This document shows, one piece after another, positions 3,395-17,549 of a stretch of DNA of 64,000 nt (within the stretch, counting starts at the first letter, position 1; the number at the start of each line of letters is the position of its first letter). The notes under the pieces were generated by a model, which saw only the letters and a program-made list of their open reading frames with translations, was not told the DNA's origin and made no database searches. Origin of the DNA: [Archangium] primigenium (lineage in GTDB: Bacteria; Myxococcota; Myxococcia; Myxococcales; Myxococcaceae). The position numbers and the translations under genes were made by a program. The stretch covers positions 7,305,224 to 7,369,223 of the forward strand of contig NZ_JADWYI010000001.1 in assembly GCF_016904885.1 (NCBI RefSeq), given 5' to 3'.

Positions 3395-5626
3395 ATGCCG
3401 CGCACCCTGTCCTTCCGTGGTTTCCTAACCCTGGGCCTCGTGGCCTGGACGGCCTCGGCGGCGCCCGCCGCTCCCGCCCCGGCCCTGCCCTCCGCCGAGG
3501 AGCGCCTGGCCCACCTGGCCCGGCTCTGGGGTCAGGTGAAGTACCGCCACCCGGCCCTGGCCTCCCGGGACATCGACTGGGACGCGGCGCTCGTGGCCGC
3601 CCTGCCCCAGGTGGAGGCCGCCGGGGACGCCGACGCCTACGCCCGCGCGGTGCAGGAGCTGTTGGAGACGCTCAAGGATCCCGCCACGCGCGTGCTCCGT
3701 CCGGAGGAGGCCGCTCCGGCCGAGGACACGGGAGCCTCTGGCGCGGGCCGCGAGCAGGCCGCGCGCTGGGCCGCCAAGGACGTGCTCCTGCTGGACCTGG
3801 GCGCGCCGTGGACCGAGACGCCCCGGAGCGAGCTGGCGCGCGCCAAGGCCGTGCTCGTGGACCTGCGGGCCCGGGGCCTGGACGCCCGCGCCCCCGAGCG
3901 CATGGCCCAGGCGCTCGGCGGCGTGCTGCCGCTGCTCCTGACCCAGCCCCTGCAGGTGCCCGGCTCGCGCTCGGTGTTCCACTCGGGCCACCGCGCGCAC
4001 ACCCTGCCCGCCGACGGCCGCTACACGAGCGCGCTGCTCACCACCTCGGGCGAGGTGGTGCCGCCCCAGGGACAGGGCAAGCCCCGGCCCATCCTCTTCG
4101 TGCTGGACGACCGCTCGCCCGTGGACGCGCGCGTGCTGACGATGAAGGCGCAGGGCCTGGCGCAGGTGCTCACCGAGGGCCGGCTGGATGACGGCGCGAG
4201 CGCCGAGACGACGCGGGTGGAGCTGGGCGCGGGGCTGGTGGCCAGCGTGCGCCTGAGCGAGCTGGGCGTGCCGCTGCGCGCCGACGCCGTGCTGCCCCGG
4301 CGCGCCCGGAGCGAGGGCAAGGACGACACGCTGCAGAAGGCGCTGGAGCTGGCGCGCAAGCCCGTGCGCAAGGTGAAGGTGCGCGAGGTGGAGCTGCCCC
4401 CGGGCCGCTGGCGCACGGACAACGCCTACCCGGACATGACGTACCCCACGCGCGAGTACCGCCTGCTCGCGCTCTTCCGGCTGTGGAACGCCATCGAGCT
4501 GTTCTACCCCTACAAGCACCTGATGGACGGCGACTGGGACGATGCCCTGCGCGCCGCCGTGCCGCGCTTCGCGGGCGCCCAGGACGCCGCGCAGTACGCG
4601 CTCGCCGTGGCCGAGCTGAGCACGCGCCTGCAGGACGGCCAGGTCACCCTCGCGGGACACCCGGAGCTGGAGCGGCGCGGCATCTCCGGCAGCCCCGCGC
4701 CCTTCGAGGTGCTGGAGCTGGAGGGCAAGCCGGTGGTGGTGCGCGTGGGCGACGCCGAGGCCGCCTCGGGCCTCAAGCGGGGCCAGATCGTCGAGACGCT
4801 CGACGGCCAGCCCCTCGCCCAGCGCCTGGAGGCCCTCAAGCCCTACGTCACGGCCTCGCAGGGCACGGCGCTGCGCCAGCGGCTGTGGACCCAGGCGCTG
4901 TCGGGCCCGGACGGCTCCCAGGCCACGGTGGGCGTGCGCGACGCGGACGGCCAGCTCAAGCAGGTGCGCTTCACCCGGGGCCCGCGCCGGGAGTCCCCCT
5001 CGGGCGAGGCGTGGCGGATGGGCCCGGACAACATGGGCTACGTGGACTTGACGCGGCTGCGGCCCACCGAGGTGGCCGCCCTGTTCGAGAAGATGAAGAA
5101 CACCCGGGCGCTGGTGCTCGACCTGCGCGGCGCCTCCCCGGGCACGCGCTGGGCCCTGACGCCCTTCCTCACCACGCGCAAGGCGCGCCACGGCGCGGTG
5201 CTCGAGCGCAACCTCGTGTCCGCGGACCACACGGGCCGCTACAAGTTCTCCGAGGAGCTGCCCCCTGCCGGCGCGGCGCCCTACCGCGGCCGCACCGTGC
5301 TGCTCATCGACGAGCGCACCCTCGGCGCGGCGGAGGACACGGGCCTGTTCCTGGAGGTCGCCAACGGCACCACGTTCGTCGGCGCGCCCAGCGCGGGCGC
5401 CACCGGCGGCGTGACGGACCTGGTGCTGCCCGGCGGCATCTCCCTGCGCTTCTCCGGCGAGGACGTGCGGCACGCGGACGGCCGGCAGTTGCAGCGCGTG
5501 GGCCTCAAGCCCCAGCTCTACGCGCGGCCCACGCTGGCGGGCCTGCGCGCGGGCAAGGACGAGGTCCTGGAGCAGGCCTACGGCTGGCTCAAGGGCAAGG
5601 GCGGCCCGGTGGGCGCGCCCCGCTAG
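3395..5626 (+). CDS. secreted S41-family (tail-specific/C-terminal processing) peptidase with PDZ-like region
   Basis: Signal peptide MPRTLSFRGFLTLGLVAWTASAAPAAPA. The C-terminal region (VLLIDERTLGAAEDTGLFLEVANGTTFVGAPSAGATGG) is typical of the S41 catalytic domain. A PDZ-like segment (GQIVETLDGQPL) is present. Confidence 0.6.
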   Translation: MPRTLSFRGFLTLGLVAWTASAAPAAPAPALPSAEERLAHLARLWGQVKYRHPALASRDIDWDAALVAALPQVEAAGDADAYARAVQELLETLKDPATRVLRPEEAAPAEDTGASGAGREQAARWAAKDVLLLDLGAPWTETPRSELARAKAVLVDLRARGLDARAPERMAQALGGVLPLLLTQPLQVPGSRSVFHSGHRAHTLPADGRYTSALLTTSGEVVPPQGQGKPRPILFVLDDRSPVDARVLTMKAQGLAQVLTEGRLDDGASAETTRVELGAGLVASVRLSELGVPLRADAVLPRRARSEGKDDTLQKALELARKPVRKVKVREVELPPGRWRTDNAYPDMTYPTREYRLLALFRLWNAIELFYPYKHLMDGDWDDALRAAVPRFAGAQDAAQYALAVAELSTRLQDGQVTLAGHPELERRGISGSPAPFEVLELEGKPVVVRVGDAEAASGLKRGQIVETLDGQPLAQRLEALKPYVTASQGTALRQRLWTQALSGPDGSQATVGVRDADGQLKQVRFTRGPRRESPSGEAWRMGPDNMGYVDLTRLRPTEVAALFEKMKNTRALVLDLRGASPGTRWALTPFLTTRKARHGAVLERNLVSADHTGRYKFSEELPPAGAAPYRGRTVLLIDERTLGAAEDTGLFLEVANGTTFVGAPSAGATGGVTDLVLPGGISLRFSGEDVRHADGRQLQRVGLKPQLYARPTLAGLRAGKDEVLEQAYGWLKGKGGPVGAPR

Positions 5627-7042
5627 CTAGTCGACCTTCTTCATCTCCTCCACGAAGGGACGGGCCTTGAGAAAGCCCGTCACCCGCGGCGCGCGCAGGC
5701 TCTCGCCCTTGGACGAGACGAACGCCACCGTGGGCAGGCCCTCCACCTCGAAGCGCTCCATCAGCGCGTCCAGGGCGTCGCTCGCCCGCGTGGCGTCCAC
5801 CTTCACGTTGAGGAAGCGCTCGGACTCGGAGATGACCTCCCCGGCCGGGTACGTCTCCCGGTCCAGCTCCTTGCAGGCCGCGCACCAGTCCGCGAAGAAG
5901 TCGATCATCACCGGCTTGCCCTCGCTCCGGGCGCGCACGAGCAACTGCTCGAAGGCCTCGGGGGAGAACTCCTGGCCGTGCGCGGGCAGCACCGCGCTCC
6001 AGGCGAACGTGGGCGCCCGGGCCGGCTCGGCCCACCCGAGCTTCACCCAGAGCTCGCCCGCGCCCTTCTCGTCCAGGGCCCCACCGCGCAGGACGAGCGC
6101 CAGCACCACCAGCGACACCCCGAAGGTCTTGAAGGTGAAGTCCCGGGGCCCCTCCTTGAAGGACAGGTGGATGGCGCCCAGCACCACGCCCAGGCCCGCG
6201 AGCCCCGCGGCCAGGACGGTGCCCGGCGTCTGGCCCACCTGCGCGAGCACGCCCTTGAGCGCCCCGCCCACCGCCGGGAACGCGTCCTTGAGGTAATTGA
6301 AGGCGAGCGCCACCAGGACGATGCCCAGCACGCTCTTCACCCACTCCATCCACACCCCGCTGCGCGGCAGGCGCACGGTGAAGACGCCAATGAGGAAGAA
6401 GGGCACGCCGATGCCCAGCGCGTAGACGAAGAGCAGCGCCGCGCCGAGCCCGGTGCTCTGCGACTTGGCCACGAAGGCGAGCAGCCCCGTGAGCACGGGC
6501 CCGGTGCACGGCGCCGCGAGGAAGCCGGACACGCTGCCCATGAGGAAGGCGCCCGTCACGCCCGAGCCACCCACCGTGGTGAGCCGCTCCTGCACGGCGC
6601 TCGGCAGCGCCAGCTCGAAGGCGCCGAACATGGAGCACGCCAGCGCCAGGAGGAACACCGCGAGCCCCGTCACCACCACGGGACTGCCCAAGAGCGAGCC
6701 GAAGGCCTGGCCCGTCTTGGCCGCCAGCACGCCCAGGGCGCTGAACACCACGCCCATGCCGACGATGTAGGCGCTCGTCAGCAGCAGCGCCTTGCCCCGG
6801 CCCTCCGCCTGCCGCGCGCCGAAGACGGACACGGTGATGGGGATGAGCGGATAGACGCACGGCGTCATCGCGGTGAGCAGGCCGCCGGCGAACACCACCG
6901 CCGCGCCCAGCGCCAGACTGCCCGACTCCAGGAAGCGCGCCGCGTCCAGCCCCGCGCTCGGCCCGGTGGGCACCAGCCAGGGAATGACCGCCACGCCCAG
7001 GGCCATCACCGCCGCGAGGCCCACCTTCTTCTTCGTGTCCAT
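5627..7042 (-). CDS. thiol:disulfide interchange protein, CcdA-like membrane domain fused to C-terminal thioredoxin (DsbD beta+gamma-like)
   Basis: Multiple TM segments with paired Cys (MTPCVYPLIPI, LAAPCTGPVL) and a C-terminal thioredoxin fold with a WCAAC motif (FFADWCAACKELD). Start taken at MDTKKK. Confidence 0.7.
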   Translation of the reverse strand: MDTKKKVGLAAVMALGVAVIPWLVPTGPSAGLDAARFLESGSLALGAAVVFAGGLLTAMTPCVYPLIPITVSVFGARQAEGRGKALLLTSAYIVGMGVVFSALGVLAAKTGQAFGSLLGSPVVVTGLAVFLLALACSMFGAFELALPSAVQERLTTVGGSGVTGAFLMGSVSGFLAAPCTGPVLTGLLAFVAKSQSTGLGAALLFVYALGIGVPFFLIGVFTVRLPRSGVWMEWVKSVLGIVLVALAFNYLKDAFPAVGGALKGVLAQVGQTPGTVLAAGLAGLGVVLGAIHLSFKEGPRDFTFKTFGVSLVVLALVLRGGALDEKGAGELWVKLGWAEPARAPTFAWSAVLPAHGQEFSPEAFEQLLVRARSEGKPVMIDFFADWCAACKELDRETYPAGEVISESERFLNVKVDATRASDALDALMERFEVEGLPTVAFVSSKGESLRAPRVTGFLKARPFVEEMKKVD

Positions 7043-7141
7043 GAGGCTCCTTCGACCGCCAGGAGCCCCTTTATACCCAGGCCCGGGCCGGGAGGAACGC
7101 GCCACGCGGCACGCTCCCCCGGCTGGTGGCCCTCCCGCGCC

Positions 7142-7444
7142 TCAGCGCGCGCCGAACGTCTTCACCATCTTCGTGTACACGCCCATGATGAGCAGCGGCG
7201 CCACCCACATGCCGGTGAACCGGGCGGCGCGCTCGCGGCCGGTGAGCTCCGCGCCCAGCGAGAAGGCCATGCAGCAGAAGCTCGCGAAGAGGAACACGTC
7301 GGAGGGCACCTTGGCCGCCTGCTGCTCGAGCAGCAGCGTCAGCGAGCTCTCCGTGTGCTCCGCGCGCATCACCGTGGCGGCCCGGTAGTCCTGCTTCGAC
7401 TTCTGGCTCGCCGGATTGACGTCCTGCCTCACGTTCACGGTCAT
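7142..7444 (-). CDS. small membrane protein, hypothetical
   Basis: 100-aa ORF with two hydrophobic segments. Start at MTVNVRQ. Weak support. Confidence 0.35.
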   Translation of the reverse strand: MTVNVRQDVNPASQKSKQDYRAATVMRAEHTESSLTLLLEQQAAKVPSDVFLFASFCCMAFSLGAELTGRERAARFTGMWVAPLLIMGVYTKMVKTFGAR

Positions 7445-7545
7445 TCCCACCCTCCCCACCCGTCTGGCGGAGCCGCCTGGGCTCCGTGCGCCCCCGGGCG
7501 CCGGTGAGCAATATGTGCTCCGTCAACGTGGACGGGGAGGTGGGG

Positions 7546-8163
7546 ATGGAGGGCGTGCAGGCGAACGAGCGGCTCCAAGACGGATTGCAGTGCGCGACGG
7601 ACGGGGCCGGCCCCCTGCTGCAGCGGGACTACTGGGCCCTCATCGAGCGCAGCCGGTACACCCCCGAGGAGGTGATGGAGTTCGTGTCCGCGCGCTTCCC
7701 CGAGTTCCCCCCCGAGGCGCTGGTCGTCTTCGAGCGGCTGGGCGGGGGAGACGGGCCGCTGGAGGTCGGCGAGGAGCTGAAGGTGGACATCCGGGGCGCG
7801 GGCGAGTGTCGGGTGCGCATCATCCACCGGGACGCCCAGAGCTTCACCATCGCCACCCTGCCGGGACACCCCGAGGCGGGCCGCATCACCTTTGGCGCCT
7901 ACCGGAATGACGAGGGCGACGTCATCTTCCACATCCGAAGCCGGGCGCGCTCCGGCTCGGGGATCATCTACCTGGGGTTCTACAGCGGCGGCGAGGCCAT
8001 GCAGACGAACACCTGGACCGACTTCGTCAACAACGTGGCGCTCACGTGTGGCGAGGGCGTCATCGGCTTCATCCACGCGGAGACCACCGTGATGGAGAAG
8101 GCGCACGAGGACGCGGACGACATCCAGGGACCCACCTATCTCGCGCGTGGAGACGAGGCATGA
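7546..8163 (+). CDS. DUF1990-family protein
   Basis: Recognisable DUF1990-like sequence (GHPEAGRITFGAYRNDEGDVIFHIRSRARSGSGIIYLGF). Stop overlaps the next gene's start (ATGA). Confidence 0.5.
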   Translation: MEGVQANERLQDGLQCATDGAGPLLQRDYWALIERSRYTPEEVMEFVSARFPEFPPEALVVFERLGGGDGPLEVGEELKVDIRGAGECRVRIIHRDAQSFTIATLPGHPEAGRITFGAYRNDEGDVIFHIRSRARSGSGIIYLGFYSGGEAMQTNTWTDFVNNVALTCGEGVIGFIHAETTVMEKAHEDADDIQGPTYLARGDEA

Positions 8164-9395
8164 CGAACGTCGAGTGGCGTTGGAAGTCGGGCTGGTCGGA
8201 CCCGGAGCTGCTGTCCCGACTGGGCCGGGCCACCACCCTCCCCCTCAACTTCGAGGGCGAGGAGAAGGGCATGACGGCCGAGAACGGCTGGAGCGTGGTG
8301 GAGTCCCAGGCCGTCATCGGCGTGGACAAGCCGGGCCCGCCCAAGGGGGAGGACGGCTTCGCGCTGCTCAAGCACGCGGTGACGGAGCTGGGCTTCTCCG
8401 ATCCGCGCATCGTGCGTGGCCACTTCGACAGCGCCATGCCCCTGCTCGGCCGCCCCATGCTGTTGGAGCTGCGCCCGCTGCGCTTCCTGCGCTACCTGTG
8501 TCCGGTGCGCGTGCGGGCCGTGCGCTCCGAGCAGGACGAGACCCACACGGCCTACGGCTTCAGCATCGACACGCTCGCCGGGCACGTGGAGTCGGGCCGG
8601 GAGTGGTTCCTGTTGAGCAAGGACCACCGCACGGGTGAGCTGCGCTTCCACATCCGGGCCACGTGGCGCGAGGGCGAGTTCCCCAACTGGTGGAGCGCGG
8701 TGGGCTTCGAGGTGATGGGCCGCCGCTACCAGCGCGCCTGGCACCACCTGGCGCACCTGCGCCTGCGCGAGCTGCTCGCCAAGGGCCACCTGGCGGCGCA
8801 CCCCTCGGGCGAGACGATGCAGGACACGCCGCTGGAGGTGAGCCGGCTGCCGGTGCAGTTCCACTCGCAGCGCGGCATGAGCCGGGCGCTGGCGAAGGTG
8901 GAGCACGAGGCGGAGAGCGAGCGGGGCCAGGACTGGCTGACGACGGTGGGCTTCGGGGTGCTCGCGGGCATGCGGAGCATGAGCGCGCCGGCGGTGCTCG
9001 CCTACCAGTACTCGGTGGAGCCCAAGGCGGTGCCCGGAGGCTGGGGCGAGCGGGTGCCGTGGAAGAAGACGGCGGCGGTGCTGGGCGTGCTGGCCGCGGG
9101 CGAGCTCGTGGCGGACAAGACGCCGTGGATTCCCGCGCGCATCGCGCCGCCGGCGCTGCTGGGCCGGGTGCTGTCGGGCGCGCTGACGGGCGCGGCGGTG
9201 GCGGCGCCGGGCCGCAAGCTGTCGCCGACCCGCGCGGTGGTGGGCGCCACGGCGGCGGTGGTCGCGACGCTGGGCTTCTACACCCTGCGCCGCTTCGCCA
9301 CGCGCCGCCTGGGCGTGCCCAACGTGGTGGCGGGCCTCATCGAGGACGCCGCGGCCGCCGCGATGGGCGGTAAGCTCTTCGCCTCGCTGCGCTGA
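8160..9395 (+). CDS. fusion protein: DUF1990-like N-terminal domain + DUF4126-like C-terminal membrane domain
   Basis: The N-terminal half resembles the upstream DUF1990 protein (GHFDSAMPLLGRPMLLELRP..., ELRFHIRATWREGEFPNWW). The C-terminal 150 aa are hydrophobic and Gly/Ala-rich (TAAVLGVLAAGELVADKTPWIP...), DUF4126-like. Confidence 0.5.
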   Translation: MTNVEWRWKSGWSDPELLSRLGRATTLPLNFEGEEKGMTAENGWSVVESQAVIGVDKPGPPKGEDGFALLKHAVTELGFSDPRIVRGHFDSAMPLLGRPMLLELRPLRFLRYLCPVRVRAVRSEQDETHTAYGFSIDTLAGHVESGREWFLLSKDHRTGELRFHIRATWREGEFPNWWSAVGFEVMGRRYQRAWHHLAHLRLRELLAKGHLAAHPSGETMQDTPLEVSRLPVQFHSQRGMSRALAKVEHEAESERGQDWLTTVGFGVLAGMRSMSAPAVLAYQYSVEPKAVPGGWGERVPWKKTAAVLGVLAAGELVADKTPWIPARIAPPALLGRVLSGALTGAAVAAPGRKLSPTRAVVGATAAVVATLGFYTLRRFATRRLGVPNVVAGLIEDAAAAAMGGKLFASLR

Positions 9396-9401
9396 ACCCG
9401 C

Positions 9402-9434
9402 GAGGCCCCGCCGTCCATCCAGCGACGGGGCCTC
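9402..9434 (+). terminator. hairpin terminator after the DUF1990-DUF4126 gene
   Basis: GAGGCCCC(GCCGTC)...(GACGG)GGGCCTC inverted repeat 7 nt after the stop codon. Confidence 0.4.
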
Positions 9435-9443
9435 GGGAGGACG

Positions 9444-9719
9444 TCAGTTGCCAAATTCAGCATCGAACGCGGCGATTGCCTCCTCGATGGAAGCAGACGG
9501 TCCAGAGCGCTGCTCTGGAGCCTCCTCACAAAAGAACTCCCAGAGCTGTCGCTCATGCTGGCGCATCGCGTCCGAGTCCACGGGCAGCCGGATCCAGTCG
9601 GCGCTTTGAACGACAAAACCACCTTCCGGAATCAGTTCGAAGCAGCGATAGACAATCGCTTTCTCGGCACTGATGCGACGGAAGACATTGATCAGCTTGT
9701 ATAACCTTGAATCATTCAT
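9444..9719 (-). CDS. small hypothetical protein in a low-GC patch (likely horizontally acquired)
   Basis: 91-aa ORF in a roughly 55% GC segment, against about 70% flanking. No recognisable domain. Confidence 0.35.
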   Translation of the reverse strand: MNDSRLYKLINVFRRISAEKAIVYRCFELIPEGGFVVQSADWIRLPVDSDAMRQHERQLWEFFCEEAPEQRSGPSASIEEAIAAFDAEFGN

Positions 9720-9734
9720 CCTGGGGCACCCACT

Positions 9735-9797
9735 TTCCGCATGGAGGCCGCCGCGGATGCCGCGCTCGGCGGCGGGCTGTTCGCCTCGCTGCGCTGA
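9735..9797 (+). pseudogene. orphan 3'-end fragment (copy B) of the DUF4126-gene terminus
   Basis: In-frame MEAAADAALGGGLFASLR-stop closely matches the real gene end ...EDAAAAAMGGKLFASLR-stop at 9340..9395, including the nucleotide string ttcgcctcgctgcgctga. Confidence 0.5.
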
Positions 9798-9821
9798 GCG
9801 CGGCGCGGTCCGCCCCGGGCC

Positions 9822-10547
9822 CTACGGACAACCCAGTCCGTTGCACGCGCCCGTGGGCGGGCAGTAGTTGTAGGCGGCGGTGCAGGTCGCGAGGCCCCCG
9901 CCGCAGGAGGAGTTGTAGAAGGAGAACCGCGTCACGTCGCTCGTCAGCCCGCCCACGACGACGTAGTTCTCCCAGCCGCCCAGGTTCGGCGTGTCGCAGG
10001 CCATGGGGGCGCTCGTCGGGTAGGAGAAGGTCAGGGTGCCACTGGCCGGAATCACGGACCCGCTGATGCCCGTGTCCTTCCACCAGATGGCCGCCGGACC
10101 ACACGAGGCGTGACGGTTGTACTTCACCACGCTGGCCCCCGGCTTGCCGGAGATCATCACGCGGAGGAACGCACCCGGGCTCGGGTGGGCCACGCTGCCA
10201 TTGGAGCCACACGCCGGAAAGCCTCTGTCATTGATGAGGATGATCTGCGGCTTCGTGCAGTTCCCAACGGCACCACTCCCCTCTTGCGCCGAGCAGTACG
10301 TGCCGGGAACATCCTTGCAATGACAATCCGCGGTACAGGCATTGGGGGCGGGAGGACCTGGGACGAGAACCCCAACACAGCGCCCCGCGCTGCATATGTT
10401 CCCGGGCTGGCACTGGCAGTTGGACGAGCAGAGCCCCTGCGTGGCTTCTCCGACGACCTCCGCCGGTTCGGCCGTGGGCGCCTCTCCGCCCGCACAACCC
10501 GTCATCAGAACGCCAGACAAAAACACGAGCACCATCTTGAGCTTCAT
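9822..10547 (-). CDS. Cys-rich secreted lipoprotein with EGF-like cysteine knots
   Basis: Start MKLKMVLVFLSGVLMTGC (signal peptide with lipobox-like LMTGC). GGGAGG lies 10 nt upstream. Mature part has about 22 Cys in C-x3-C-x-C-x5-C-x4-C patterns. Confidence 0.5.
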   Translation of the reverse strand: MKLKMVLVFLSGVLMTGCAGGEAPTAEPAEVVGEATQGLCSSNCQCQPGNICSAGRCVGVLVPGPPAPNACTADCHCKDVPGTYCSAQEGSGAVGNCTKPQIILINDRGFPACGSNGSVAHPSPGAFLRVMISGKPGASVVKYNRHASCGPAAIWWKDTGISGSVIPASGTLTFSYPTSAPMACDTPNLGGWENYVVVGGLTSDVTRFSFYNSSCGGGLATCTAAYNYCPPTGACNGLGCP

Positions 10548-10764
10548 GCGGGGTACGCCTCCCGTGGGGTGAACACGCTCCAGTGGACACGCCATCCGAC
10601 TGGCAGCCAACACATCACCCTAGGCCCAATGGCCTCGGAGGTGGTGCGGACGGACCTGCTCCTCCCAATAGTTGACACTCCAAGTGAATCCTGTCAGCCC
10701 CAGACGCGCTGTTCCAGCCGACATGGGAGTGCGCCAGCACCCGTCGGACCGCGGCGCGGTCCGC

Positions 10765-11493
10765 TCAAGGACAGGAACGACCCCTGATGGCTGGAAAGCG
10801 CACATAGGCGAGACGGAGCGCGTCCAGATGCCGGGGGTTGTCCAGGTCCAGGGGCTCTTCCGTGAGGGGCACCACCCAGCCGCCCGAGGCCGTGCGCCGC
10901 GAGCGCGCGAGCAGTAGCCCGTCTCGCGAGAGGTCGGGAAACCCCAGGAGTTGGGCGGTGGCGGCCGACCAGTAGTTCACCCATCCCAGGCGGTACGGAA
11001 TCAAGGGGGAGTCGAATTCGTCCGGGGGCTTGAGCAGGGGAAGTCCAAGCGGCGGCGTATGGGGCGCGGAGAACGGATGCCAGACTTGCTCCGCGACCAT
11101 GAGCACCACGGCACTGGGGCTCATGTCTCCCCACCAGCCGCGAGCGGCTTCACCCACCCCCTCCAACGTGCCCACCGCCGCCCGAATGGCTTGTGATTCC
11201 AATGGCAATTTCCCATGGATGCTCAGCGCGGACTGACCCGCCGGAGAAACAGCGTCTCTTGGGATTCCGTAAACCATCACCGGGTAAGACTCGTCACCAT
11301 TGCAGACGAGCGGAAAATCGCCACGCGCGACCGCCTCGGAAAACCATTGCTCGCGCCGTGGCAATTTCAGGAGTTGTCCGTCCTCGGTAACATCCCAGAC
11401 CAGGTGAAGCCCAGGGAAGGAGTGCTCCATGGCCTGGACCACGGCCAGAGGGCGACCATCACCTCTTTCAAGGGGGGTCGTGAAAACAGTCAT
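10765..11493 (-). CDS. hypothetical protein (GC about 62%)
   Basis: Start at MTVFTTPLERGDG. No domain recognised. Lower GC than the core genome. Confidence 0.4.
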   Translation of the reverse strand: MTVFTTPLERGDGRPLAVVQAMEHSFPGLHLVWDVTEDGQLLKLPRREQWFSEAVARGDFPLVCNGDESYPVMVYGIPRDAVSPAGQSALSIHGKLPLESQAIRAAVGTLEGVGEAARGWWGDMSPSAVVLMVAEQVWHPFSAPHTPPLGLPLLKPPDEFDSPLIPYRLGWVNYWSAATAQLLGFPDLSRDGLLLARSRRTASGGWVVPLTEEPLDLDNPRHLDALRLAYVRFPAIRGRSCP

Positions 11494-11559
11494 GACCAAC
11501 TGGTCGCTCGCGCTTGGCATTTCAGCACCCTGTCACAACGACCTTCAAGGTGGCATCTT

Positions 11560-11800
11560 CTTTGAGCAATGCTTCTCGGTGCGAGGCATGACGGATCCCC
11601 ACCACGAGTTGGTAACCACAGGCACCAAGCCCATGGCCCATCCACCTCTATCACGTGCACCTCGCCCATCTTGTGCTGGAAGGCCGCCGCCACCGGCGGC
11701 AGTTGTCGCGCCAGCACCAGTCGGATGAACTCGGGCGACGCCGCGATGCCAGCGTCTGCCGCTCGAGCAGCGGCGTCTCCGCCCGCGGGACCATCGTCCA
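11560..11800 (-). pseudogene. diverged 3'-proximal fragment of a flotillin-family gene
   Basis: Minus-strand translation PEFIRLVLARQLPPVAAAFQHKMGEVHVIEVDG aligns with the C-terminal region of the intact flotillin gene (PESIQLVLAQQLPQVAAAFQQKMGEVHVTAVDG). Nucleotides 11650-11760 align with 14280-14390. Confidence 0.5.
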
Positions 11801-11955
11801 CCGCGCGTGAGCCACCCGCGCGACCTCCACCTTCTGCCGCAGCCACATCCGCGCCAGCGTGCCCTTGGCTGCGCCGCCGCCACGGCCCGCCCAACGTGAG
11901 GGCGAACTTTATGGTGACACCTCCGCGGCCGCGATCGGCGGCAAGCTGTTCGCCT
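11800..11955 (+). pseudogene. orphan 3'-end fragment (copy C) of the DUF4126-gene terminus
   Basis: ...cccaacgtg...gcggccgcgatcggcggcaagctgttcgcctcgcggtgctga aligns with 9290..9395 (...GVPNVVAGLIEDAAAAAMGGKLFASLR-stop). Confidence 0.5.
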
Positions 11956-12841
11956 CGCGGTGCTGAACGTGGCACGGTCCGCCCCCAAGGCCCGGGGCGG
12001 ACCGAGGTCCCGGCTAAGGATCGACCGATGTCGGCGGCCTGGGGGATTCTCGCACGGGGACGTAGCAGCGCCCCTGGTGTTCGTAGAACTGGCCACACGG
12101 AGGACGCCGCTCCATGCGGCTCCAGCACCCTCCGTTGATCTCCTCGTCACCTGTCGACGCCGGAAGACAGGGAGATGCCTGCTGTTTCTCTAGGCGCTTG
12201 GGCGGCATGGGCACCGCGATGGTGCCGCCGTCACGCGACAGCCAGTCGGTGGCGATGGACTCGAACTCGGGCCGCTCCGGTGCAGCATCCATGCGGATGG
12301 GCTTGGGATGCGGCGCGAGCAGGCCCCACAGAGCGATGCCCACGGCCAGAACCCCCAGCGCACGTGGGGGCCACGTGGCGGGGACGTCCCACGTCGACCA
12401 AGCCTTCCGCTCTCGACGGGGATTGAGTCGCGACACCACACGCAAAGCCACGAGGAGGGGAATCGTACTGCCCGTACTCCGTGCGCACGCGATGGAAAAA
12501 AGGAGGATTTTCAGCCTGCGGAATCCGTGATGCCTGGCACCAATGAAGATCCGGGCCCATTGCCGCCGTTTCTTGAGGGTCATTCAGGGGAAACTACTTA
12601 CTGCGTCGTGCACGATTGCGTCCACAGTCCAGGGCCGCGGACGCAGCCGCTCGACGTCAAATAAGTAGCCAGGCGTGCTTGCCTTGAAATCTACGCCCGA
12701 CTGACCTTGTCGATTGAAGCCCTCGTTCCGATTCACCCCAGGAACGGATGGAGCGGAAGCCACTGCGGACTCGCCGTTCCAACCGTCATTGGAGTGCGCC
12801 AGCACGGTAAGGCGCGTCATGGCCACCGCCTGCCTGGGTGG

Positions 12842-14026
12842 TCAGTAGTCGTAAAAGTAGAACGCCGCGATGTCCGCCTTGCCGTCACCCGTGAAATCCC
12901 CTGCCACCGGCCGACCTCTGTTCCAGTCCCATTGGCCCAGCCCACTCAACCACGGTCGGGAGAGTGAAAACGCACCTGTCCCCGTCGCGGTGAACAACCA
13001 GAGGCCCGTGTTCGCGTTGCCGTAGTTGTAGAACGCCGCGATGTCCGCCTTGCCATCGCCCGTGAAGTCACCGGCGACGGGAGAGGCGTTTTTCCATATC
13101 CAATTACCCGGGCCACTCAACCACGGCCGGGAGAGGGAAAACGCACCCGTCCCCGTCGCGGTGAACAACCAGAGGCCCGTGTTCGCGTTGCCATAGTCGT
13201 AGAACGCCGCGATGTCGGCCCTGCCATCGCCCGTGAAGTCACCGGCGACGGGAGAGGCGTTTTTCCATATCCAATTACCCGGGCCACTCAACCACGGCCG
13301 GGAGAGGGAAAACGTGCCCGTCTCCGTCTGAGTGAACAACCAGAGGCCCGTGTTCGCGTTGCCGTAGTCGTAGAATGCCGCGATGTCGGTCCTCCCATCG
13401 CCCGTGAAGTCGCCGGCGACCAGTTGGCACTGACTCCAGATCCAGTTCCCAGGGCCACTCGTCCAGACCAGGGACGCAGAGAAGGACCCTTTACCCGTCG
13501 CCCGGAAGATCCAGAGGCCCGTGTTCGCGTTGCCATAATCGTAGAACGCCGCGATGTCTTCCTTCCCATCACCCGTGAAATCACCAGAGACCAGCTTGGT
13601 TCTGTCCCACGCCCAACCGCCAGCACCGCTCTTCCAAAGCAGCGAAGGAGAGAAAGCGCCTGATTCTGTCGCGGTGAGCAGCCAGAGGCCTGTGTTCGCG
13701 TTGCCATAATCATAGAACGCCGCGATGTCGGCCTGACGATCGTTCGAGAAGAGGCCCGCCACCTCCTTGCTCGCGGCCCAGGCCCAATTTCCCGCACCAC
13801 TCCACCAAGCGGAGTAAGGAGAGGAGAAACCTGATCCCGTCGAAGGGAACATCCAGACTCGGGTATTGGCCGTCGCAGCGGAAACGTGTTCATGAGGAAC
13901 CGTCTCGACCGCGGCTGCTCCAGCAGGGCTTGGTAGGAAAAAAAGGCCTCCCAGAACAAACACCGAGAATGCCCTGCGCCCATGACTCCAGAGGAACAGC
14001 GGACTCGAATCACTCGTCCTGGCCAT
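12842..14026 (-). CDS. secreted FG-GAP/VCBS-like repeat beta-propeller protein
   Basis: Signal peptide (RRAFSVFVLGGLFFLPSPAGAAA) followed by at least six tandem 57-aa repeats, each with GDFTGDGKADIAAFYDYGNANTGLW. Start choice (MARTSDSS) is tentative. Confidence 0.6.
   Translation of the reverse strand: MARTSDSSPLFLWSHGRRAFSVFVLGGLFFLPSPAGAAAVETVPHEHVSAATANTRVWMFPSTGSGFSSPYSAWWSGAGNWAWAASKEVAGLFSNDRQADIAAFYDYGNANTGLWLLTATESGAFSPSLLWKSGAGGWAWDRTKLVSGDFTGDGKEDIAAFYDYGNANTGLWIFRATGKGSFSASLVWTSGPGNWIWSQCQLVAGDFTGDGRTDIAAFYDYGNANTGLWLFTQTETGTFSLSRPWLSGPGNWIWKNASPVAGDFTGDGRADIAAFYDYGNANTGLWLFTATGTGAFSLSRPWLSGPGNWIWKNASPVAGDFTGDGKADIAAFYNYGNANTGLWLFTATGTGAFSLSRPWLSGLGQWDWNRGRPVAGDFTGDGKADIAAFYFYDY
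12850..13900 (-). repeat. 171-bp tandem coding repeats inside the FG-GAP gene
   Basis: Adjacent units are near-identical at the DNA level. Units at about 13010-13180 and 13181-13350 share blocks of about 95 identical nt. Confidence 0.7.
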
Positions 14027-14179
14027 CACGAACCCTCCACGACAACAGTGCTCTCCTGTCCGTACCAACAGGAGGGAGCGCGCTGGACTTGCCTGCACAA
14101 CACCAAAACCCACACACTCCGTGTGGCCTGGCTATCTGGCAGGCAGGCAAGTTTCTGTCGTGTCACACCAGACGGTCGC

Positions 14180-15832
14180 TCACCCCTTCTTCTCCGGCAC
14201 CTGGAGGCCCGCCGAGCGCGCCAGACCCATGACGCCCTCCACCGCCGCGGCGATGTAGCCAAAGGGATTGGCCCCATCCACCGCCGTCACGTGCACCTCG
14301 CCCATCTTCTGCTGGAAGGCCGCCGCCACCTGCGGCAACTGCTGCGCCAGCACCAGCTGGATGGACTCGGGCGACAGCGTGTTGTCGATCTCCTTGAGCG
14401 CCTTGGCCCGCGCCAGCTCCGGCTCCTGCGCCATGCGCGCCTTGCGCGCGTCCATCTCCGCCAGCGACAGCTCCGCCTCGGCGATGGCGCACCGGGCCTC
14501 CGCCGCCCGCGCCTGCGAGCGCGCCCGCTCCTCCTCCTGGTGCAGCTCCGCCATGCGCGACTCGTGCCGCGACGCCAGCGCCTGCCGCTCGAGCAACAGC
14601 GCCTCCGCCTCCGCCTGCGCCTGGAGCGCCTTCATCCGCCGCTCGTGCTCCACCCGCGTGGCCTCCGCCTCCTGCTCCAGCTGCATCCGCTCCAGCGCGC
14701 CCTTGGCCTGCGCCGCCGCCAGGGCCCGCTCGTTCTCCTGCTGCGCCTCCGCCATGCGCCGCTCGGACTCCAGCCGCGTCAGCGTCTGCGCCTCCTCCGA
14801 GCGCGCCTTCTGCTCGCGCACCTCGCGCTCGGCGTTGAGCTTCGCCAGGGCCACCTCGCGCTCCAGGGACACCTGCGCCTGCCGCGTGCCCCGCTCCTTG
14901 GCCACCCGCGCCTCCTCCACGCGCGACTCCACCGCCAGGGACTCGAGCTTCGCCTGCTCCTCGGCCTCCTGCCGCTTCTGGCGGACCTCCTCCTCCGTCG
15001 CCAGGCGCGTGAGGGAGATCTGCCGCTCCACCTCCGCCTCCTCGCGGCGGATGAAGCGCTCCTTGGCCAATTCCGCCTCGCGCGCCACCCGCTCCTGCTC
15101 CTGGCGGTAGCGCGCCTGCATGTTCGCGAACACCACCTCCGACAGCACCCGCACGTCCTGAATCTCAATCGTGTCCAGGACCACGCCCCAGCCCGTGTCC
15201 GCGCGGTCCTCCAGCCGCCCCCGCCCCGACACCACCGGGGCGATCTCCCGCATCAGCTCCTCGGCCAGGCCCTCCTTGCGCCGCGTGAGGCACTCCTCCA
15301 CGGTGAGGTTGGCCACCAGGCGCCGCACCGCGCCCACGAACATCTCCCCGAGCAGCTCGGCCAGCTTCTGCTGCGCCCGCTCGGGAAAGGAGAAGTTGAG
15401 CATCCGGAAGGCCACCAACGGGTCGACGATCCGGTAGACCGCCAGCCCCGTCACCTGCACGCCGACCTTCTCGCTCGTCACCTGATCCGCCGTGAAGCGC
15501 AGCCGCTGCACGCTCGTGGGCACGATGGCCACCGCGTCCCCGGGCAGCTTGAAGCAGGAGGCGCCCTGCCCGCTCACCTCGCGCACCCGGCCCCGGCGCA
15601 TGTGGATGAGGAACTCGCTCGGGCGGGCGGTGATGAGGCCCCACTTCTTCATCTTCTCCGGATCCTCCTCCGGCTTGCCGGCCCGCCAACCGTTCGGGTA
15701 GCGCCCCTCGGGCTCCACCCGGGCCAGGTCCTGGCGCACCTCGTTGCGCGGCAGGGGCGGCGGCTCTCCCACCGACACCGCCAGGGAACCCGCCGCGTTC
15801 ACCTTCACCATCCGCTTGTCGTTCGTGCTCAT
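14180..15832 (-). CDS. flotillin/SPFH (band 7) family protein with long coiled-coil
   Basis: SPFH domain (GLAVYRIVDPLVAFRMLNFSFPERAQQKLAELLGEMFVGAVRRLVANLTVEECLTRRKE). About 250 aa of Ala/Glu/Arg-rich coiled coil and a conserved flotillin C-terminus. Start at MSTNDKRMVKV. Confidence 0.7.
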   Translation of the reverse strand: MSTNDKRMVKVNAAGSLAVSVGEPPPLPRNEVRQDLARVEPEGRYPNGWRAGKPEEDPEKMKKWGLITARPSEFLIHMRRGRVREVSGQGASCFKLPGDAVAIVPTSVQRLRFTADQVTSEKVGVQVTGLAVYRIVDPLVAFRMLNFSFPERAQQKLAELLGEMFVGAVRRLVANLTVEECLTRRKEGLAEELMREIAPVVSGRGRLEDRADTGWGVVLDTIEIQDVRVLSEVVFANMQARYRQEQERVAREAELAKERFIRREEAEVERQISLTRLATEEEVRQKRQEAEEQAKLESLAVESRVEEARVAKERGTRQAQVSLEREVALAKLNAEREVREQKARSEEAQTLTRLESERRMAEAQQENERALAAAQAKGALERMQLEQEAEATRVEHERRMKALQAQAEAEALLLERQALASRHESRMAELHQEEERARSQARAAEARCAIAEAELSLAEMDARKARMAQEPELARAKALKEIDNTLSPESIQLVLAQQLPQVAAAFQQKMGEVHVTAVDGANPFGYIAAAVEGVMGLARSAGLQVPEKKG

Positions 15833-16047
15833 CCGTGTGCCTCCAGAACTCGTGGAGATCCCGGATTGCAGACCCCTGGCCAACCGACGACTGCCCTGAA
15901 ATCGGGCACTTGGCGCCGGGGGGTGGGCCGGGGTGGCGCGACTGCCCCATTCTGGAGCGGGCCAGAGCAGGGCGGTGTCTGAAAGAGGACTGAATCGGTC
16001 CGATTCGGGGTTGATACCGGGCGGTCACCCCCGGCCCGCATGTCGCC

Positions 16048-16095: not shown

Positions 16096-16184
16096 AGGTG
16101 TGCCAATGTAGGCACCCCAGGGACGTCGCGGGGTTATCCACCCGAGGCGTCCCAGACCGACGGCTGTCTGGAAGGCTCTACGCG

Positions 16185-17549
16185 ATGCTGAAGCTGCCCA
16201 TCTACATGGACAACCACGCCACCACGCCGATGGACCCGCGCGTGCTGGAGGCCATGCTGCCCTACCTGCGCGAGGACTTCGGCAATGCCGCGTCGCGCAA
16301 TCACGCGTTTGGCTGGAAGGCCGAGGCGGCGGTGGAGCTGGCGCGCAAGCACGTGGGCGCGCTGATCGGCGCGTCGGACAAGGAGATCGTCTTCACCTCG
16401 GGCGCCACCGAGTCGGACAACCTCGCCATCAAGGGCGTGGTGGAGTTCTACAAGGACAAGGGCGACCACATCATCACGCTCAAGACCGAGCACAAGGCGG
16501 TGCTCGACACCTGCAAGCGCCTGGAGCGCGTGCGGCAGGAGCGGCTGGACGAGCTCAAGATGCTGCGGCTCATGCAGCTCACGGGCGGCCCGGTGTCGCG
16601 CGAGGATCTGGCCACGCTCGCCATCAAGCACGACCTGGACAACGACGCGGCCTACCAGCAGTGGGCGGCGCTGCCCACGGGCGGCGCGCGCGTGACGTAC
16701 CTGGAGGTGGAGAAGGACGGCCGGGTGGACCTGCGCAAGCTCGAGGCGGCCATGACGGACAAGACCATCCTGGTTTCCATCATGCTGGCCAACAACGAGA
16801 TCGGCACCGTGCAGCCCATCGCGGAGATTGGCCGGATGTGCCGCCAGCGCGGCATCCTCTTCCACTGCGACGCGGTGCAGGGCGTGGGCAAGGTGCCCTT
16901 CGACGTGGAGGCGATGCAGGTGGACCTGGTGTCGCTCTCCGCGCACAAGATGTATGGCCCCAAGGGCGTGGGCGCGCTGTACGTGCGCCGCAAGCCGCGG
17001 GTGCGCATCGCGCCGCTCATCGACGGCGGTGGGCATGAGCGCGGCATGCGCTCGGGCACGCTCAACGTGGCGTCCATCGTGGGCTTCGGCGAGGCGGCGC
17101 GCCTCGCCCGCGAGGAGATGGCCGAGGAGGCGGTGCGCCTCAACCGGCTGCGCGAGCGGCTGCGCAAGGGCATCGCGGAGAAGTTGGATCTGCTCACGGT
17201 GAACGGCTCGCAGGAGCACCGGCTGCCGGGCAACCTGAACATCTCCTTCGCCTACGTGGAGGGCGAGGCGCTGATGATGGCCATCAAGGACGTGGCGGTG
17301 TCGTCGGGCTCGGCGTGCACGTCGGCCTCGCTCGAGCCGTCCTACGTGCTGCGCGCCTGCGGCGTGGAGGAGGAGATGGCGCACAGCTCCATCCGCTTCG
17401 GCCTGGGCCGCTTCAACACCGAGGAAGAAGTCGACTTCGTCATCCAGCTCATGGTGGACAAGGTGAACCGTCTGCGCGAGATGAGCCCGCTGTACGAGAT
17501 GGCCAAGGAAGGCATCGACCTCAAGAGCATCGAGTGGACGGCGCACTGA
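16185..17549 (+). CDS. iscS: cysteine desulfurase IscS (with a 50-aa insertion)
   Basis: Conserved class-V aminotransferase/IscS sequence ([45 protein letters not shown]). GGAAGG lies 9 nt before the ATG. 454 aa, about 50 more than the E. coli enzyme. Confidence 0.85.

Follow-up and report, generated by a model that had tools for sequence, protein, structure and literature searches.

How does a short space between two convergent core genes come to hold decayed copies of the ends of both? The question is raised by a 64,000-nucleotide stretch of the Archangium primigenium genome (contig NZ_JADWYI010000001.1, positions 7,305,224 to 7,369,223; the window hereafter), which has a GC content of about 70% and was taken from an assembly consisting of one 9.47-Mb contig. 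The interval studied, positions 9396-14179 (4.8 kb), lies between the convergent DUF1990-DUF4126 and flotillin genes, and the features mentioned below are listed with their positions in Table 1. Comparison loci from other genomes are designated by L and a number. The explanation preferred here, to which a probability of about 60% is assigned, is that the interval is an accessory patch which varies between strains and arose through repeated illegitimate recombination, in which duplication of gene ends, remodelling, orphan immunity genes and turnover are combined.

According to this explanation, an old duplication would have connected a point in the flotillin gene about 550 bp short of its 3′ end with a point in the DUF4126 gene 78 bp short of its 3′ end. 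This joint would have arisen at a short GC-rich microhomology, through either tandem duplication or re-insertion of an excised circle, leaving a flotillin relic (flot′) beside a relic of the DUF4126 end (copy C). A further relic (copy B) would be the product of a second event, again at the DUF4126 end. Pieces of foreign loci, each starting inside a gene and running through its 3′ end, then remodelled the space; these were a 21-bp stump of sitA5 with orf91, a DUF6310 stump with a DUF5953 gene, and the stump of a Ser/Thr kinase gene. Different parts have since disappeared or been exchanged in the sister strains: microhomology deletions occurred in one, and a stretch containing a remnant of an IS3-family insertion sequence (IS) is carried by the other.

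Relics of the two gene ends

Self-comparison of the window showed two orphan relics, B and C, of the real DUF4126 gene end (copy A) and one relic, flot′, of the flotillin gene. B is 82% identical to A (9335-9395) and C is 77% identical to A, while C and B are 86% identical over 11920-11985, a match that extends beyond the stop codon into the hairpin; the flank of B (9798-9821) is one half of the hairpin found after C. In flot′, the block at 11637-11739 matches 14273-14375 of the intact gene with 88% identity over 103 bp, ungapped, and the block at 11740-11890 matches 14566-14729 with 77% identity. About 190 bp were lost between the blocks, small insertions and deletions are present, and the gene's final 93 bp were not retained.

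The fragments described in the original prediction, which was made from the nucleotide letters and a list of open reading frames (ORFs), are thus real and true homologues of both gene ends, with several of the coordinates off by up to about 90 bp. Copy C had been placed at 11800-11955 and is located at 11891-11968, and copy B, given as 9735-9797, spans 9737-9797. The minus-strand flotillin fragment proposed at 11560-11800 exists as well; it spans 11637-11890. The part at 11560-11636, which had been counted with it, is not flotillin, since the DUF6310 stump occupies 11525-11630.

Mismatches at codon positions 1, 2 and 3 numbered 11, 16 and 7 between flot′ and its parent, against 10, 3 and 28 between intact orthologues, and this distribution indicates that flot′ is unconstrained and decays neutrally. 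The gene-end relics are regarded as functionless and decaying. Substitutions of the window lineage are present in flot′ and absent from 14 relatives; similarly, B and C end in ...LFAS(LR), like A and the metagenomic locus L083, and the other Archangium species end in ...RLLARIG. These lineage-specific characters show that the relics are derived from the window lineage's own genes. B and C share the CTCGG and CTG states with the outgroup Archangium, and A, L088 and L083 share derived states; because of the shared outgroup states, B and C, short as these sequences are, may predate the gene end as it is now.

Coding bias towards Ala and Gly in GC-rich DNA, which had been named beforehand as a possible source of spurious matches, could in principle produce such similarity by chance in a genome with 70% GC, and the internal coiled-coil repeats of flotillin do cross-match at 65-73%. 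In a background scan of 1.59 Mb of high-GC myxobacterial DNA, however, non-orthologous matches to A, B or C reached no more than 39 bits, against 61-70 bits for the mutual matches of A, B and C. The matches include the stop codon, the flank after it and the lineage-specific substitutions, and the first flot′ block is 88% identical over its 103 bp without gaps. Chance similarity is refuted by these results and its probability is practically nil.

Three direct copies of a gene end, each followed by a hairpin and minus-strand cargo and with the gene itself staying intact, resemble the outcome of serial site-specific integration, in which the last 60-80 bp of DUF4126 would be the attachment site (att) and A, B and C would be the attL, internal att and attR of accreted islands. 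Members of integrase, recombinase or transposase families were not found among the tested ORFs of 9396-14179, and the copies, which are 77-86% identical and begin at different points on the left (-61 and -78), have no long identical core, the longest shared exact run being about 10 nt. C adjoins a flotillin fragment and not an island end, and extra copies of the DUF4126 end were found in none of the relatives carrying DUF4126. Serial integration is already largely refuted and must be considered very improbable.

The joint between flot′ and copy C

Flot′ and C abut via their 5′-truncated ends at 11890/11891, about 90 bp to the right of the junction near 11800 that had been predicted. The joint sits where both parents share GCGCCGCC...GGGC, a GC-rich microhomology; at this point the DUF4126 gene (A) reads CGCGCCGCCTGGGCGTGCCC followed by AACGTG, and the flotillin antisense strand reads TGCGCCGCCGCCAGGGCCCGC followed by TCG. 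The joint has the form expected of the novel joint if the convergent gene ends had been duplicated in tandem by a microhomology-mediated event, and an identical joint would result if an excised circle had been re-inserted. The limits of the implied duplicated segment are 78 bp ahead of the DUF4126 stop on one side and about 550 bp ahead of the flotillin stop on the other.

The colinear markers present in both putative copies of the duplication are three only, namely the DUF4126 end with its hairpin, a 38-bp segment, and the flotillin end. The 38-bp segment is found at an equal relative position in both, and its two copies are 87% identical, with a local alignment score of 28 compared with 10.2 ± 1.3 for shuffled sequences. 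The possibility that this repeat represents the end of an IS was found to be unsupported, as the IS remnant of L091 (see below) starts after the repeat and no IS3-like peptide is encoded in the window.

Toxin stumps and orphan immunity-like genes

The rest of the interval had been described as foreign fill. With respect to composition this description is adequate, since the GC content at third codon positions (GC3) of every ORF in the interval was 0.63-0.81, compared with 0.93-0.98 for the core genes. The content proved to be more specific, comprising 5′-truncated stumps of putative toxin genes, intact and putatively immunity-encoding orphan genes, and a kinase stump; the space was remodelled by 3′-end pieces of foreign loci.

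The orf91 cassette (9441-9740) shares 79-83% DNA identity, over exactly that span, with L085, L086 and L087, which are from Cystobacter fuscus (L087) and metagenomes. In these three loci, the upstream gene overlapping the orf91 homologue encodes a SitA5 toxin (NCBIfam SitA5_escort, 349-369 bits; cut-off 160). The window keeps just 21 bp of sitA5, and the SitA5 escort domain was not found in the window, being present only in the neighbours of the orf91 homologues; orf91 is thus not in an operon with a sitA toxin gene and is an orphan. The gene itself is intact, encoding 91 amino acids (aa) with 54.7% GC and a GC3 of 0.63, and 47 homologues of about 91 aa have 50-86% identity to its product. Because its homologues in L085, L086 and L087 follow SitA5 toxin genes, orf91 is regarded as an orphan sitI5-like gene with a putative immunity function. 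SitA toxins are delivered through outer membrane exchange and neutralised by the cognate SitI, and sitAI loci, numbering 25-80 per genome, are often carried on mobile DNA and are functional after horizontal transfer (PMC5562445, PMC8546572).

In C. fuscus (L087:4716-8779), two tandem SitA5 genes, both overlapped by a small gene downstream (97 aa in one case, 91 aa in the other), are followed by a SUKH/SMI1 immunity gene, forming a compact toxin-immunity array. The Cys-rich lipoprotein gene of the window and orf91 were also considered as a toxin-immunity pair; this was ruled out, as the two are separated by relic B and the partner of orf91 in other loci is SitA5.

The DUF6310 stump was detected by tblastn with the proteins encoded upstream of the DUF5953 genes in L082 and L081 (50-52% identity over 30-33 aa, E 1e-6 to 7e-5). 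The DUF5953 gene directly follows a lipoprotein gene with a C-terminal DUF6310 in each of the other loci seen. DUF6310-ending lipoproteins of 177-334 aa, each followed by an overlapping or abutting DUF5953 gene, are encoded at L081:4995-6765, L082:5291-6759 and L088:4227-5154. An AlphaFold2 model of the DUF5953 protein (predicted local distance difference test score 78.7, predicted template modelling score 0.82) was searched with Foldseek and matched 7drg_B (PA0821; E 6e-8), 9oz0_A (TsiT; E 3.5e-5) and 7dym_B (TsiT; E 1.4e-4), all with probability 1.0 and template modelling (TM) scores of 0.45-0.59. One UniRef entry names a DUF5953 homologue 'Immunity protein 52 domain-containing protein'. TsiT is known to neutralise TseT, a PD-(D/E)xK nuclease effector (PMC9635880).

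A D...E-x-K-like motif (DALQ...LWE[VI]KT), read by eye, is carried by the DUF6310 domains, and nuclease or toxin activity of DUF6310 is suggested by this motif only. PA0822 is presumably the toxin partner of PA0821, and TsiT is taken here to belong to Imm52. Tox-REase-5, to which TseT belongs, gave no detectable sequence match to the DUF6310 partner, and sequence searches of the PDB returned no relatives of DUF6310 or DUF5953. From its neighbourhood and fold, the DUF5953 gene is read as an orphan immunity gene with a predicted TsiT/PA0821-like fold. DUF6310 and DUF5953 look like a probable toxin-immunity pair, and may represent a myxobacterial lipoprotein toxin-immunity pair not described before. 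The two orphan genes, orf91 and the DUF5953 gene, are probably kept for protection against lipoprotein toxins from non-kin myxobacteria.

The kinase stump in orf189 was recognized by tblastn with the 470-505-aa kinases of L015, L016 and L024 (34-42% identity, E 1e-6 to 3e-9). The part kept corresponds to the transmembrane segment and the Cys-rich C-terminal domain; the kinase domain is gone. An open frame of 80 codons at 12584-12826, which contains copy 2 of the 38-bp repeat, is in frame with orf189 across one TGA, and no homologue of it was detected.

A bolder possibility is that the DUF4126 3′ end is a recurrent landing site that captures toxin-stump/immunity cassettes, the gene end being rebuilt each time, so that it would act as a recombinase-independent 'immunity gene trap'. 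If true, this would be a way for myxobacteria to widen their protection against non-kin lipoprotein toxins; the idea is judged to be a long shot.

Turnover among sister strains

Two genomes with species-level identity to the window were compared with it. In L088, the core is 97.4-97.7% identical to that of the window. This locus is without orf91 and B; instead, it has a DUF6310 gene with an internal deletion that leaves the signal peptide and the last 49 aa, followed by a DUF5953 paralogue with 43% identity. The Cys-rich lipoprotein gene is retained, as are the final 125 bp of the window-type DUF5953 gene; a microhomology of 7 bp (CCGCCCG) connects this DUF5953 remnant to flot′ sequence, of which 114 bp are present with 100% identity to 11779-11892 of the window. 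The hairpin at 9398-9440, which looks like a bidirectional terminator, is missing in L088, where the match continues for just 4 nt past the DUF4126 stop.

The second locus, L091, belongs to the complete genome of Melittangium boletus (CP185340.1), the core of which is 96.8-98.2% identical. L091 matches the window continuously over 4000-10739, that is, through A, the hairpin, the sitA5 stump, orf91, B (nearly unchanged), the lipoprotein gene and the first of the two 38-bp repeat copies. The region 10740-14184 is absent and is replaced by 1.43 kb which carries a degenerate IS3-family transposase and extends up to the flotillin stop. This remnant (L091:12586-13180), with a frameshifted orfA, HTH_Tnp_1, and an rve domain cut at 58/102, sits where the match to the window stops; a lipoprotein-like ORF of 141 aa (13385-13810) is found after it.

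All relic classes except C and the kinase stump therefore recur in a second assembly. Since the two genomes of about 97% identity share some of the relics and lack others, the arrangement is not an artefact of assembly and the turnover among sister strains is ongoing. A chimeric or mis-joined region had been named in the original prediction as something to be checked, and short repeats and a 171-bp tandem array are located nearby, with C and the kinase stump occurring in this genome only. Against this stand the single 9.47-Mb contig, the reproduction of 4000-10739 by L091 and of part of flot′ with its flanks at 100% by L088, and the divergence of the fragments from their parents by 12-23%, which is incompatible with mis-placed reads. 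The two independent assemblies exclude a chimera for most parts, and an assembly artefact is extremely improbable.

The accessory segment 9826-10739 (lipoprotein gene and upstream DNA) differs by 7-17% between the strains, compared with 2-3% for the flanking core, a contrast that points to relaxed constraint or to the exchange of alleles with donors less closely related. In the core, the window genome and M. boletus CP185340.1 are about 97-98% identical, and the genus of the window species is given in brackets in UniRef; the names Archangium primigenium and Melittangium boletus probably cover one species.

Evidence against the proposed history

Several observations speak against the history outlined above or against parts of it. 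With respect to the duplication, tandem duplication as originally proposed fits the geometry of the joint and its microhomology; a single duplication leaves copy B unexplained, so a further event is needed, and direct convergence of DUF4126 and flotillin genes, for which comparison of gene order in related genomes had been suggested, was seen in no relative. Searches by tblastx and sensitive blastn between the putative copies returned nothing past the 38 bp. C, like the kinase stump, is absent from both L088 and L091 and is known from the window genome only. The homology between the window and L091 stops at 10739, just 1 nt before the 38-bp repeat ends, a coincidence for which this history does not account. 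Dating of the duplication by divergence was dropped as unsafe in view of the unequal distances of accessory (7-17%) and core (2-3%) DNA between strains. As for function, the immunity role assigned to DUF5953 is suggested by gene neighbourhood and fold only; Pfam Imm52 did not match the DUF5953 protein of the window or 10 homologues even at E values up to 10, the NCBIfam SitA models did not match the DUF6310 lipoproteins, and the promoter scan gave no sigma-70-like site upstream of the orphan genes.

In L088, flot′ runs straight into the sequence from 12660 onward (11892 joined to 12660), with a break no more than 2 nt from the joint between flot′ and C. Either L088 deleted 11893-12659, or the window gained this block at an older joint. 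In the latter case the region would have been assembled piecemeal: flot′ would come from another tandem duplication, comprising the flotillin 3′ part, the FG-GAP gene and sequence to about 12660, and C with its hairpin and the kinase stump (11893-12659) would have been inserted later, from a genome in which a kinase gene converges on DUF4126. Such a history would account for the position of the L088 break and for the lack of C and the kinase stump in both sister strains, and the 38-bp repeat would be explained, as it would fall inside the duplicated unit. However, C has already decayed, having a frameshift and an in-frame stop, and such decay would not be expected if a functional gene end had been imported recently; a joint exactly where the DUF4126 and flotillin parents resemble each other is not predicted; and the homology expected to the left of copy 1 of the 38-bp repeat is not detectable. 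Furthermore, L088 has 'CC' after the flotillin homology, like C, where the parent flotillin has 'TC', although this is one informative nucleotide. The decay of C, the microhomology at the joint and the shared 'CC' weakly favour a deletion in L088, and piecemeal assembly is considered unlikely, with odds of perhaps one in a few.

The insertion site in other Myxococcota

The gap between the flotillin and dsbD genes is shorter than 300 bp in 42 of 62 Myxococcota loci, and insertions of 0.3-9.3 kb are present in the other 20. Because the genes inserted in these 20 loci are unrelated, the spot is a recurrent insertion site across Myxococcota. In most Myxococcaceae, flotillin is followed directly by dsbD, without DUF1990 genes. 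Eight other Archangium species hold the DUF1990 pair here, and in each the distance between flotillin and DUF4126 is 1.6-6.4 kb; located in this stretch is a SEC-C-motif gene similar to methionine aminopeptidase, in most cases together with one small gene. None of these 8 species was found to carry fragments of either gene end, and no remnant of the SEC-C-motif gene was found anywhere in the window. In L083 (83% identity), an apparent sigma-54 activator gene converges on DUF4126, with no flotillin gene within 8 kb.

Repeats of 34-55 bp with 88-95% identity, about 65 bp apart, were observed downstream of flotillin at L002:11807-11943, L008:11866-11964 and L011:11781-11884, and more copies in both orientations are located 5 kb off in L011 (16554-16730). 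In Archangium, this looks like a small dispersed repeat.

Features of the interval and its neighbours

Table 1. Positions of genes, relics, hairpins and repeats in the window
Feature	Position	Strand	Remarks
dsbD-like gene	5627-7105	-	
DUF1990 gene	7486-8163	+	
DUF1990-DUF4126 gene, intact	8160-9395	+	Pfam DUF1990 and DUF4126; identical to WP_204492699.1; GC3 0.98
Copy A	9318-9395	+	Last 78 bp of the real DUF4126 end; parent of the relics; self-comparison
Hairpin	9398-9440		GC-rich; between DUF4126 stop and orf91 stop; RNA fold -31.3 kcal/mol
orf91 cassette, 300 bp	9441-9740	-	3′ end of sitA5, 21 bp (9720-9740); orf91 (9444-9719); 3 bp
Copy B, orphan relic	9737-9797	+	Last 61 bp of DUF4126 including stop codon; self-comparison
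Cys-rich lipoprotein gene, 241 aa	9822-10547	-	Lipobox LMTGC
38-bp repeat, copy 1	10703-10740		
DUF5953 gene, intact	10765-11520	-	Pfam E 3.5e-91; GC3 0.72; NCBI start 11493
DUF6310 lipoprotein (putative toxin) stump	11525-11630	-	Last ~35 codons; fused to flot′
flot′, decayed 3′-proximal flotillin fragment	11637-11890	-	Self-comparison
Copy C, decayed relic	11891-11968	+	Last 78 bp of DUF4126; frameshift and in-frame stop
Hairpin after C	11970-12008		Folds at -31.2 kcal/mol
orf189	12014-12583	-	12017-12361: 3′ ~115 codons of membrane Ser/Thr kinase gene
38-bp repeat, copy 2	12768-12805		Also in L088
FG-GAP repeat protein gene	12842-14113	-	Pfam FG-GAP and FG-GAP_3
Flotillin/Band 7 gene, intact	14180-15883	-	Parent of flot′; Pfam Band_7; GC3 0.96
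iscS	16098-17549	+	

The flotillin gene likely starts at the ATG at 15835, and orthologues were found in 80 loci. The Cys-rich lipoprotein is rare, with only 8 homologues among 5.8 billion proteins; its gene is present in L088 (89% aa identity) and L091 and lies in unrelated contexts in L089 and L090. In L089, it is accompanied by the 31-bp flank 9791-9821, which includes the last 7 nt of B. The FG-GAP gene, which is absent from L091, contains a tandem array (12857-13823) with a unit of 171 bp (57 aa), for which Tandem Repeats Finder reported about 5.1 copies in the window and about 4.1 in L088 (2143-2849).

An Rfam scan of 9000-14500 gave nothing relevant, the 38-bp repeat and the hairpins matching no known RNA, and PADLOC and NCBIfam searches returned no defence or toxin names for the genes filling the interval. 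A perfect 18-bp palindrome was observed at 7319-7336, within a small conserved gene of 100 aa beside dsbD.

Comparison with known systems

At one site, three genomes of about 97% identity differ in their toxin stumps and orphan immunity genes, each having a set of its own, which would represent a change in the kin-discrimination repertoire of a social bacterium. The breakpoints are still readable as joints at microhomologies, a remnant of an IS3 element and decayed gene ends, and two Pfam families of unknown function are linked, DUF6310 as the C-terminal domain of short lipoproteins and DUF5953 with a predicted immunity-protein fold.

The orphan modules of contact-dependent growth inhibition (CDI), cdiA-CT/cdiI, and those of Rhs systems are like the pieces found here in that the toxin genes are 5′-truncated with the 3′ end kept, an intact immunity gene follows, and the content is strain-variable. 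CDI and Rhs orphans are found downstream of a full-length toxin gene from their own family, with which they have the recombination region in common. In the window, by contrast, the modules derive from two unrelated putative toxin families and lie between two non-toxin genes, and what is repeated is the end of a gene for a membrane protein. An orphan CdiA-CT is mentioned in PMC5562445.

The SitA/SitI system is the nearest relative of the orf91 cassette, as orf91 homologues directly follow SitA5-family toxin genes; the differences are that the window holds 21 bp of sitA5 with the toxin absent and that the immunity function of orf91 is putative. For the other module, the DUF5953 fold matches TsiT and PA0821 of the TseT-TsiT and PA0822-PA0821 pairs that belong to the Pseudomonas aeruginosa type VI secretion system (T6SS), and the D...E-x-K-like motif of DUF6310 is comparable with the PD-(D/E)xK of TseT. 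Unlike these systems, the partner of DUF5953 is a lipoprotein and not a T6SS effector, there is no sequence match to Imm52 or Tox-REase-5, and the TM scores are 0.45-0.59.

A likeness may also be seen to the acquired interbacterial defence islands of Bacteroidales, in which immunity genes occur without toxins and vary between strains. Those islands are larger, and some carry recombinases, whereas two immunity-like genes and no recombinase were found here.

The scar itself resembles microhomology-mediated tandem duplication followed by pseudogene decay in its distal-to-proximal joint, its microhomology, its neutral substitutions and its small deletions. It differs in that the putative copies share three short markers and that the third copy of the gene end, B, needs a further event. 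No new mechanism is revealed; the duplication scar is ordinary genome wear, and the locus is an instance of known phenomena in a known plasticity interval.

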